4,985 nucleotides of DNA from a virus (lineage: Duplodnaviria; Heunggongvirae; Uroviricota; Caudoviricetes), in IMG/VR virus record IMGVR_UViG_2579778535_000006; one strand, 5' to 3'. A program made the translations under genes and the position numbers. Below are positions 2,957-4,985 of this stretch, one piece after another. Positions within the stretch are counted from its first letter, which is position 1; every line of letters begins with the position of its first letter. Below the pieces are notes generated by a model. The model saw only the letters and a list, made by a program, of their open reading frames with translations, searched no databases and had not been told where the DNA came from.

Positions 2957-4054
2957 TTAGAACTGGTAAACCAGACCTACAGCAACGATGTCATCAGTGC
3001 TTACACCGAGTGCTTTAGTGAAGTCATTTTTGTCAAGCAGGTTGATTTTGTAATCAACGAAAGTAGACATATTTTTGTTGAAGTAATAGGTTGCACCTAC
3101 ATCAACATATTTGACTAAGTCCTGATCGCCCCATACTCCAAGATCCTTACCTTTAGATTGCAGGTAAGCAACGGACGGACGCAGACCGAAATCGAACTGA
3201 TATTGTGCAACAGCTTCGAAGTTTTGGGCTTTATTAGCAACGAAGTGATCAGCAAATACAGTCATATTCTGGGTTTCAGAATAGGTAGTGGCCAGGTAAA
3301 TGTTGTTAGCGTCATATTTCAGACCTGCGGCCCAAACTTCTGCATTTTTACCGGAAGCAAATACTTCAGGAAGAACTTTCCCTGCATTAACTTGAGTGTC
3401 GGTACGATCAGATTTCGCATAAGTTGCACCGATACCGAATCCTTCGTATTCATAGGTAGCAGAGAAACCGAAGCCATCACCGTTACCTTCAGTGTAGTTA
3501 TCGAAATCGCTACGATCGTTTTTGCCTTGGTACTGAGCAGCAAAGTTCAGACCATCAACCAGACCAAAGAAGTCGTTGTTACGATAGGTTGCAACACCAG
3601 TTGCACGTTGAGTCATGAACACGTCGGTTTGAGTCCAAGTGTCACCACCGAATTCTGGCAGGACGTCAGTCCACGCACCGATGTCGTATGCTACACCGTA
3701 GTTACGGCCGTAATCGATGGAGCCGTAGTCACCGAATTTCAGGCCAGCGAAGGCAAGACGGGTTTTATCTTTGGAGGAACCTTGAGATTCAGCGCGGTTG
3801 CCTTTGAATTCATATTCCCACTGACCGAAACCAGTCAGTTGATCGTTGATTTGGGTTTCACCTTTGAAGCCAAGACGGGCATAAGTAGTATCACCATCAT
3901 CTGCATCATTAGAGGAGAAGTAGTGCTTAGCATTAACTTTCCCGTACAGATCCAGCTTGTTACTGTCTTTATTATAAATTTCAGCTGCCTGAGCAGACAT
4001 CGCCATTAGTACTGATGCAGCTACAGCAGAAATTGCCACTGTTAATTTTTTCAT
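2957..4054 (-). CDS. nmpC: Outer membrane general porin, OmpC/OmpF/PhoE/NmpC family (prophage-encoded, NmpC/Lc-like), 365 aa, intact
   Basis: Minus-strand ORF; true start is ATG 4054-4052 ([23 protein letters not shown] signal peptide, [10 protein letters not shown] cleavage site). Mature N-terminus [17 protein letters not shown] and the motifs RLGFKGETQ and GNGDGFG, plus a C-terminal ...GLVYQF, are those of enterobacterial 16-strand porins. The ORF track's start at 4114 adds 20 non-signal residues and is rejected. No IS interruption. Confidence 0.9.
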
Positions 4055-4481
4055 CGTGAGCCCTTTTTTTGAACTATTATTAAAAAATGATGTCACTGCG
4101 CGATAAATATTCATCTAATCAATGTGATTATTTCAAGATGTAAGTTTTGGTTTCTCGTTTGATTTGTGAAGTAGATCTCTATTTTTATCTGAACTTTTTT
4201 CTATCGAATCCTATTCATGGCTCTTGGCTGAATAAAAATAAATCTATTAGCCAATTTATATTAACGGCTGTTATTTATAAGTGCTCTATAATTTGAAGGT
4301 TCAATTTAAACCGGCTAAAAATAACACTGGAAATTATTTTTTGGTTATTTGTTGAGATTTGCTTATGTATTTGTAGTGGTGTTTTCAATACTCGGTAGCA
4401 TTCTCTCAAATATCATTTAGTGGTTTACGTACGTAAAAAATTGGTTATGCTGTTAAGAGTGGTTACTTCGTCACACAGCTT
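4055..4481 (-). promoter_or_regulatory. AT-rich upstream control region of the porin gene (promoter not mapped)
   Basis: Roughly 570 bp without a credible ORF between the porin start (4054) and the holin start (4627), strongly AT-rich with many A/T tracts, as in porin regulatory regions. The exact promoter is not resolved. Confidence 0.3.
4424..4437. promoter_or_regulatory. Perfect 14-bp palindrome TTTACGTACGTAAA, candidate dimeric regulator binding site
   Basis: Read directly; self-complementary over all 14 nt, embedded in AT-rich DNA about 45 bp upstream of the plus-strand terminator and about 190 bp upstream of the holin start. Confidence 0.3.
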
Positions 4482-4515
4482 AAACCCGCCGTCGAGCGGG
4501 TTTTTCCATTTTTTG
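4482..4515 (+). terminator. Rho-independent terminator, plus strand
   Basis: AAACCCGC-cgtcga-GCGGGTTT stem (8 bp, GC core) followed by TTCCATTTTTT. Orientation is unambiguous: the T tract follows the hairpin only on the plus strand. About 110 nt upstream of the holin start. Confidence 0.6.
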
Positions 4516-4626
4516 AGTCTCGATATTAGCTGATAACCCAATACCTGAGTTATTCACTGACTCCGAGTCTGTTACGTTTCGTAGTATTCCCTCAATTTAC
4601 ACCCGCTTTGTCTGCGAGGTGGGGTT

Positions 4627-4842
4627 ATGAAATCCATGGATAAGTTAACAACGGGTGTCGCCTATGGCACCTCAGCAGGTAGTGCCGGGTACTGGTTTTT
4701 ACAGCTGCTAGATAAAGTCACTCCCTCACAGTGGGCAGCAATAGGTGTGCTGGGTAGCCTGGTATTTGGCCTGCTGACGTACCTGACAAACCTTTATTTC
4801 AAGATTAAAGAAGATAAGCGCAAGGCTGCGAGAGGTGAATAA
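4627..4842 (+). CDS. essD: Class II holin (pinholin), phage 21 S-type, 71 aa, with dual-start motif
   Basis: ATG 4627 preceded by GAGGTG. Product [71 protein letters not shown]: Met1-Lys2-Ser3-Met4 dual start, a Gly/Ala-rich weakly hydrophobic TMD1, a hydrophobic TMD2 and a charged C-terminal tail, as in S21 pinholin. Confidence 0.9.
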
Positions 4843-4985
4843 TGCCTCCATCATTACGAAAAGCCGTTGCTGCTGCTATTGGTGGCGGAGCAATTGCTAT
4901 AGCATCAGTGTTAATCACTGGCCCAAGTGGTAACGATGGTCTGGAAGGTGTCAGCTACATACCATACAAAGATATTGTTGGTGTA
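4842..4985 (+). CDS. rrrD: SAR endolysin (phage 21 R-type lysozyme), 5' portion only; continues past window end
   Basis: ATG 4842 overlaps the holin stop (TAATG). Translated by hand to [48 protein letters not shown], whose Gly/Ala-rich N-terminal segment is a signal-arrest-release domain. Partial, 48 codons in window. Confidence 0.85.

Follow-up and report, generated by a model that had tools for sequence, protein, structure and literature searches.

A probable leader terminator for the Q-controlled late operon of a DLP12/PA-2-type prophage that carries a porin gene

We analyzed a stretch of 4,985 nt of prophage DNA (the window) and suggest, with a probability of about 80%, that the hairpin and T tract at positions 4482–4514 form the leader terminator (tR' type) of the prophage's Q-controlled late operon. 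Such a hairpin is a known kind of element, here in a well-studied prophage. According to the model that we propose, a sigma-70 late promoter, pR' (4424–4451), would start transcription at about 4458. Without Q, polymerase would make a leader of ~50 nt and halt at the hairpin and U tract, so that the holin, the endolysin and the later genes would stay off. When Q is present it would act as in the phage 21 structures, binding a site in or near the promoter, loading onto polymerase paused within the first roughly 12–25 nt, and narrowing the RNA exit channel such that the terminator hairpin cannot form; the Q-loaded polymerase would then pass the hairpin and transcribe holin, endolysin, and later genes (10.1101/651190; PMC6606751). 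With a porin gene inserted between Q and pR', Q would act on a promoter 1.7 kb away from its own gene. Expression of the DLP12 lysis operon has been described as being under a phage Q-type antiterminator (PMC7918800, as cited there from Toba et al. 2013). The idea that passage into the lysis genes is restricted to Q-modified polymerase, already put forward in a preliminary description of this DNA, fits all the evidence.

Gene order and identity to three references show the window to be the part of a DLP12/PA-2-type lambdoid prophage that controls its late genes, here with the porin gene intact. Positions 4115–4640 are 100% identical to OL657227, a phage 434 recombinant that acquired the DLP12 region, and 94% identical to phage PA-2, the carrier of the lc porin; positions 4400–4640 are identical in Escherichia coli K-12. 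The 68-nt leader segment 4458–4525 is present in 2656 of 5426 complete E. coli genomes. Gene order was read from open reading frames and Pfam matches. An AraC-type regulator (119–679), NinB/YbcN (894–1349), YbcO (1473–1802), RusA (1799–2161), and ylcG (2158–2298) are followed on the plus strand by a quuD-type Q antiterminator gene (2384–2767; PF06530 Phage_antitermQ, E = 4e-53), which encodes 127 amino acids from its ATG (the mechanical reading frame starts at TTG 2369) and is annotated as an antiterminator in OL657227. Next comes a porin gene of the nmpC/lc type on the minus strand (2957–4114; PF00267, E = 6e-157; annotated as porin NmpC/lc). The first late gene is a class II (phage 21-type) holin on the plus strand (4627–4842; PF04971, E = 2e-35) with dual starts at 4627 and 4636, annotated as antiholin/holin in OL657227 and as essD in K-12. 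The 5' part of a SAR endolysin gene (4842–4985, plus strand) then runs off the window; in OL657227, the gene next to the holin is annotated "SAR endolysin glycoside hydrolase". The lysis genes annotated in that record (holin, SAR endolysin, and spanins) lie directly downstream of the leader terminator. We also observed that a hairpin at 4600–4621 (CACCCGC/GCGAGGTG), just before the two holin starts, pairs with the holin Shine-Dalgarno region and resembles the hairpins known to control the translation of dual-start holins.

The structure at 4482–4514 consists of a stem formed by AAACCCGC (4482–4489) and GCGGGTTT (4496–4503) around the loop CGTCGA (4490–4495), followed by TT-CCA-TTTTTT to position 4514, which gives a U5-CCA-U6 tail in the RNA. 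A pattern scan detected it as a plus-strand terminator-like site with a 6-nt loop and eight pairs, of which five are G-C. By itself, the hairpin has a folding energy of -11.5 kcal/mol (z = -3.15), and none of 200 dinucleotide shuffles folded equally well. The hairpin and its T tract are thus real, and the plus-strand terminator structure that the preliminary description had seen ahead of the holin and endolysin genes is confirmed. Its placement "about 110 nt" before the holin was also accurate, with 112 nt between the end of the T run at 4514 and the ATG at 4627. The same description called the terminator strong and canonical: its form does fit the canonical pattern, but the interrupted T tract makes it only moderately strong. 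Across the whole window, the pattern scan returned seven terminator-like sites versus 4.6 ± 2.3 in shuffled sequences. A hairpin followed by T is therefore not beyond chance as a pattern, and the case for function must rest on conservation. The scan listed no second plus-strand terminator-like site between 4516 and the holin. Rfam gave no match at the hairpin; cmscan of the whole window at E ≤ 1 returned one unrelated weak match, at 566–798. The Term-seq supplementary tables of PMC7815308, in the part available to us, contain no entry for K-12 transcript ends near essD, either by gene names or in either coordinate system; window positions 4504–4514 correspond to about 577,275–577,285 in U00096.3.

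The position of the promoter was provided by homology to Shiga toxin (Stx) phages. When positions 4300–4626 were compared by BLAST with phage genomes, 363 records matched, most of them only over 4423–4505, with 77–78% identity and immediately after Q. In phage 933W, the homologous stretch carries the GenBank features "pR'; putative late promoter", "qut", and "possible rho-independent terminator", which places a promoter 24 nt before the hairpin and points to the hairpin as the terminator of the late-operon leader. The pR' and first terminator of 933W (NC_000924, 20666–20693 and 20726–20748) are direct homologues of the window element, with 77% identity over 83 nt. In a BLAST-derived alignment of nine diverse homologues (alignment A1), the -35 hexamer TTTACG (4424–4429), the 16-nt spacer, and the -10 hexamer TATGCT (4446–4451) of the window align base for base with the TTTACG-16-TATCAT arrangement of 933W, and the window hairpin lines up with the 933W terminator. 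Positions 2 (A4447) and 6 (T4451) of the -10 hexamer are invariant in this alignment, as is the block TAAGAGTGGTTAC just downstream of it; the two phages thus have in common the -35 sequence, the spacer length, the key -10 bases, and this block. The 933W hairpin (AACCCGC/GCGGGTT) and its U run stand at the same distance as those of the window, and the 933W Q protein is 78% identical to that of the window. A promoter consensus scan did not list pR', since the promoter agrees with the consensus at only 8 of 12 positions, and our identification of it therefore rests on homology. By the same homology, a sigma-70 late promoter stands 24 nt upstream of the hairpin, and the transcription that meets the terminator would come from there, instead of from the porin control region or antisense through the porin, as had been proposed. 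Because pR' lies inside the AT-rich region, Q-modified polymerase would have to load there and not upstream of the porin.

The two loci also differ. The pR' unit of 933W overlaps the end of Q, whereas in the window it lies 1.7 kb away, behind the porin. In 933W, there is a second terminator at +258, followed by tRNA genes and stx before the lysis genes; in the window, the holin follows 112 nt after a single terminator. Homology to the Stx phages stops at window position 4505. One further signal reported nearby, a RpoS SELEX peak in the insH-essD spacer (PMC5493296), falls ~590 bp upstream of essD if U00096.2 numbering is assumed, and is too coarse to be of use here.

We estimated the start site from transcripts mapped in the Stx phages of EHEC Sakai, where dRNA-seq and Term-seq put 258 nt between the start at pR' and the 3' end at tR' (PMC7547250). 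In 933W, the same distance measured back from the T run that ends the second terminator leads to A736, 7 nt after TATCAT. The mapped start agrees with the window promoter and would correspond to window position 4458, give or take 2 nt, within a conserved initial transcribed region on the plus strand (GTTAAGAGTGGTTACTTCGTCACACAGCTT, 4452–4481; start at about 4456–4458). With this numbering, the hairpin would occupy +25 to +46 of the transcript, and the hairpin with its tail +25 to +57; the expected terminated RNA would be ~50 nt long. The pR' promoter is constitutively active in Stx phages (PMC7547250). The preliminary description had offered, as an alternative, that the hairpin marks the 3' end of a small RNA from the AT-rich region. 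This was essentially right as to the short RNA, and mistaken only in opposing it to the late-operon reading, as the short RNA would itself be the pR' leader transcript.

The first ~30 nt of the leader are strongly conserved. Among loci from IMG/VR, the invariance of the leader block is partly imposed, as the search pattern demanded that block, and the BLAST-derived alignment provides the unbiased evidence. Within this region, AAGAGT (4455–4460) is a candidate sigma-dependent pause element: it keeps A2 and T6 and aligns with AACGAT of lambda. A second candidate, TACTTC (4464–4469), lacks T6 and is variable among homologues. The resemblance to lambda extends along the initial transcribed sequence, where AACGATGGGTTAATTCG at lambda +1 resembles AAGAGTGGTTACTTCG of the window (L132 787–803 versus window 4455–4470), and continues after the pause candidate, where GGTTACTTCG of the window resembles GGGTTAATTCG of lambda. 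The lambda segment AACGATGGGTTAATTCG holds that phage's sigma-dependent pause element, and the similarity of AAGAGTGGTTACTTCG to it is seen despite unrelated Q families. The window unit would work as the pR'-6S RNA-tR' system of lambda does: the late promoter would be constitutive, and in the absence of Q its transcripts would stop at an intrinsic terminator close by. The lambda Q belongs to family PF03589, unrelated to the window Q, and the lambda leader measures 194 nt versus about 50 nt here. The 1986 PA-2 entry (J02580, 1067–1087) records a CRP site at 4458–4478, exactly where the conserved late transcript begins. We reject this site as a probable misattribution: just one of its half-sites (TCACA) fits, CCACA stands in its place in most homologues, and phages lacking a porin also have the block after Q.

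Conservation of the hairpin was assessed across loci collected with sequence motifs and BLAST. A scan of IMG/VR with TGWTAAGAGTGGTTAC yielded at least 120 loci. In a genome-wide motif scan, for which our own arithmetic predicts ~550 chance matches in 596 Gb, most of the 120 matches listed were due to chance and came from unrelated phyla; we kept only those in Enterobacterales with a Q homologue. We disregarded locus L012, one of the references in alignment A3, because its orientation was wrong. Among 133 loci that have this leader, with 79 distinct sequences, a perfect hairpin with a T run is present in 108 loci and 65 sequences. These hairpins begin between +25 and +38 from the inferred start site and are built from 20 different stem cores, for example CCCGC/GCGGG, CCTCGC/GCGGGG, CCGCCA/TGGTGG, GAAACCCTGCC/GGCGGGG, and CCTCG/CGAGG. 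RNAalifold recovered the stem from 39 sequences, with changes on both sides at two pairs in 13 of them. The same leader layout occurs in species representatives of Serratia, Yersinia, Enterobacter, Trabulsiella, and Kosakonia. Since the T run is kept along with the hairpin while the distance from the start varies, the comparison argues that the conserved element is an intrinsic terminator and not a fixed-register pause hairpin. The site can evidently do without strong termination: the G4498T allele (GCTGG) of phage PA-2, which is functional, lowers the hairpin from -11.5 to -5.3 kcal/mol, and this weak allele is common, the exact PA-2 leader being found in ~601 E. coli records versus ~1777 with the window allele.

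The Q gene and its spacing from the leader link this unit to a particular antiterminator family. The window Q belongs to the family named Q21/Q933W by Yin et al. (10.1101/651190). It shows 78–81% identity to the Q of 933W-type Stx phages, and it is related only distantly to phage 21 Q (structures 6jnx and 6p18; E = 7e-7 over about 80 residues). In ~100 loci from IMG/VR and GenBank with a detected Q homologue (42–100% identity), the leader motif is always downstream of Q and on the same strand. The distance from the Q stop to the motif is bimodal: either 39–76 nt, as in phages without cargo, or 600–3050 nt in ~12 discrete classes, with porin carriers in the class of 1670–1688 nt. Cargo between Q and the late promoter is thus common, with the porin as one example, and the Q-pR' junction is a place where cargo genes, porins included, have inserted repeatedly. 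In the window, Q lies 1.7 kb upstream of pR' because the porin gene sits between them.

The sequence between the -35 and -10 hexamers varies with the type of Q. The window has a short palindromic sequence there, ACGTACGT, with an A run after it (4427–4439, plus strand). Loci with the window-type Q have this ACGTACGT and A run, those with the 933W type have ACGATCGT, those with a Q about 50% identical have GCGGTCCGC, and those with a Q about 46% identical have GCGTACGC; other Q types come with GGAATTCC, GTCATGAC, and GTTATAAC. The type of spacer element follows the Q clade and does not change with the kind of terminator or with how far away Q lies, as would be expected of a Q-binding element, and we consider it a candidate for that role. 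In phage 21, the Q-binding element is located between -35 and -10 (PMC6606751). One locus (L018 9208–9435, compared with window 4415–4640) combines a promoter and spacer of the GCGTACGC type, with a Q 46% identical, and the exact terminator and holin leader of the window. The crossover lies inside the invariant block, and the conserved leader start appears to act as a joint for mosaic recombination.

A related system that has been characterized structurally is Q21-pR'21-tR'21 of phage 21, which has in common with the window the Q family PF06530 and the series of promoter, promoter-proximal pause (a candidate in the window), terminator, phage 21-type holin, and SAR endolysin. The two differ in the Q element, which is a direct TGAGCA repeat in phage 21 and, as a candidate, the palindrome with its A run in the window.

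We considered whether the hairpin might be no operative terminator but a leaky 5' structure or pause, with lysis controlled elsewhere, for example by how strong the promoter is, by other sigma factors, or in translation through the hairpin of the holin leader. Several observations fit this. The pR' RNA mapped in the Sakai Stx1 and Stx2a phages is 258 nt long and ends at the second terminator (PMC7547250), and hence the homologous first hairpin is read through there, at least in part, without Q; an RNA of about 50 nt could, on the other hand, have escaped the mapping methods used. The PA-2 allele is weak, the DLP12 lysis genes are reported to respond to RpoE and Hha as well (PMC7918800), and a hairpin sequesters the Shine-Dalgarno sequence ahead of the holin. 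We nevertheless regard this reading as unlikely. Across 20 stem sequences the T run is kept, and not the hairpin alone, a hallmark of intrinsic terminators; the variable position of the hairpin, from +25 to +38, goes against a pause element in fixed register; and the window, unlike 933W, has no second terminator before the holin.

A trans-acting role for the leader has also to be weighed, as short pR' transcripts can gain regulatory functions: StxS of the Stx phages is such a case (Sy, Lan and Tree 2020; PMC7547250). The StxS promoter is homologous to that of the window, and the first ~48 nt of its 258-nt precursor are homologous to the window leader. The strong conservation of the first ~30 nt and the presence of the locus in 2656 of 5426 complete E. 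coli genomes would likewise suit a regulatory RNA. The stable 74-nt 3' fragment of StxS, however, which carries the regulatory seed and a terminator of its own, comes from beyond the homologous region. The window lacks it, and the matches there are confined to +1 to +9 and +25 to +47; a blastn search with this fragment (933W 920–993) found only chance 8- to 10-mers in the window. The window leader is for this reason not StxS. Rfam has no match at the site, and the helix that RNAalifold proposes (4459–4461/4474–4476) shows no change on both sides at any pair, while alternative 5' helices, compared by eye, are not kept across the aligned variants; we therefore rejected a conserved 5' helix in the leader. 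The failure to maintain such helices fits a constraint at the level of DNA, such as Q loading and pausing. A literature text search for essD together with Hfq gave nothing relevant. That the hairpin is the 3' end of a trans-acting small RNA like StxS is very unlikely in our estimation. The broader notion that the ~50-nt pR' leader (4458 to about 4510), which K-12 and roughly every second E. coli carry, is a constitutive small RNA with some separate function is improbable.

Equally to be considered is a general insulator, whose main job would be to stop stray plus-strand transcription from the porin control region or antisense through the porin. Any unmodified plus-strand polymerase coming from upstream would indeed meet the hairpin, and the region 4115–4420 is AT-rich and could hold spurious promoters. 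A far stronger plus-strand hairpin with U5 is already in place between Q and the porin, however, at 2907–2947 (-21.3 kcal/mol, z = -5.45). Unmodified plus-strand transcription leaving Q meets it before the porin, so the protection of the lysis genes from readthrough, which the preliminary description had assigned to the hairpin at 4482–4514, is largely achieved elsewhere. Moreover, the same promoter and terminator are found 39–76 nt after Q in phages that have neither a porin nor any intervening DNA, which indicates that the terminator is a part of the pR' unit rather than of the porin insertion. Insulation as the main role is thus quite improbable. The spacer between Q and porin (2795–2956) contains several strong hairpins, among them a minus-strand terminator at 2818–2801 (-13.9 kcal/mol), about 140 nt beyond the porin stop. 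The porin 3' untranslated region in this spacer corresponds to the IpeX RNA of DLP12/PA-2; we found no Rfam match for it.

Finally, a chance hairpin, or one that is part of a small coding frame at 4448–4534 (28 codons), is a negligible prospect: although terminator-like patterns are no rarer in the window than in shuffled sequences (7 versus 4.6 ± 2.3), and a frame spanning the site is annotated as "hypothetical protein" in PhiR5_1 and other phage records (L006 1467–1583), the structure is conserved despite different sequences, the ATG of the frame precedes the probable start of transcription, and 1-nt indels in loop and spacer among the homologues would shift the frame, which is probably spurious as a gene.

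The late-operon leader terminator that we favor has a practical consequence for reporter experiments. A fragment covering 4440–4626, as proposed in the preliminary description, would give a false negative because it lacks the -35 hexamer and the candidate Q-binding spacer element; reporters of Q control must start upstream of about 4400. The understanding of Q antitermination is unchanged by these findings, and the new points are modest: cargo that displaces pR' from Q, a spacer element specific to the Q clade, a common weak allele of the terminator, and corrections of annotation. In the E. coli and K-12 records that we examined, neither pR' nor the terminator is marked. The late promoter and its terminator are now placed for a prophage region that occurs in about half of sequenced E. 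coli, K-12 included.
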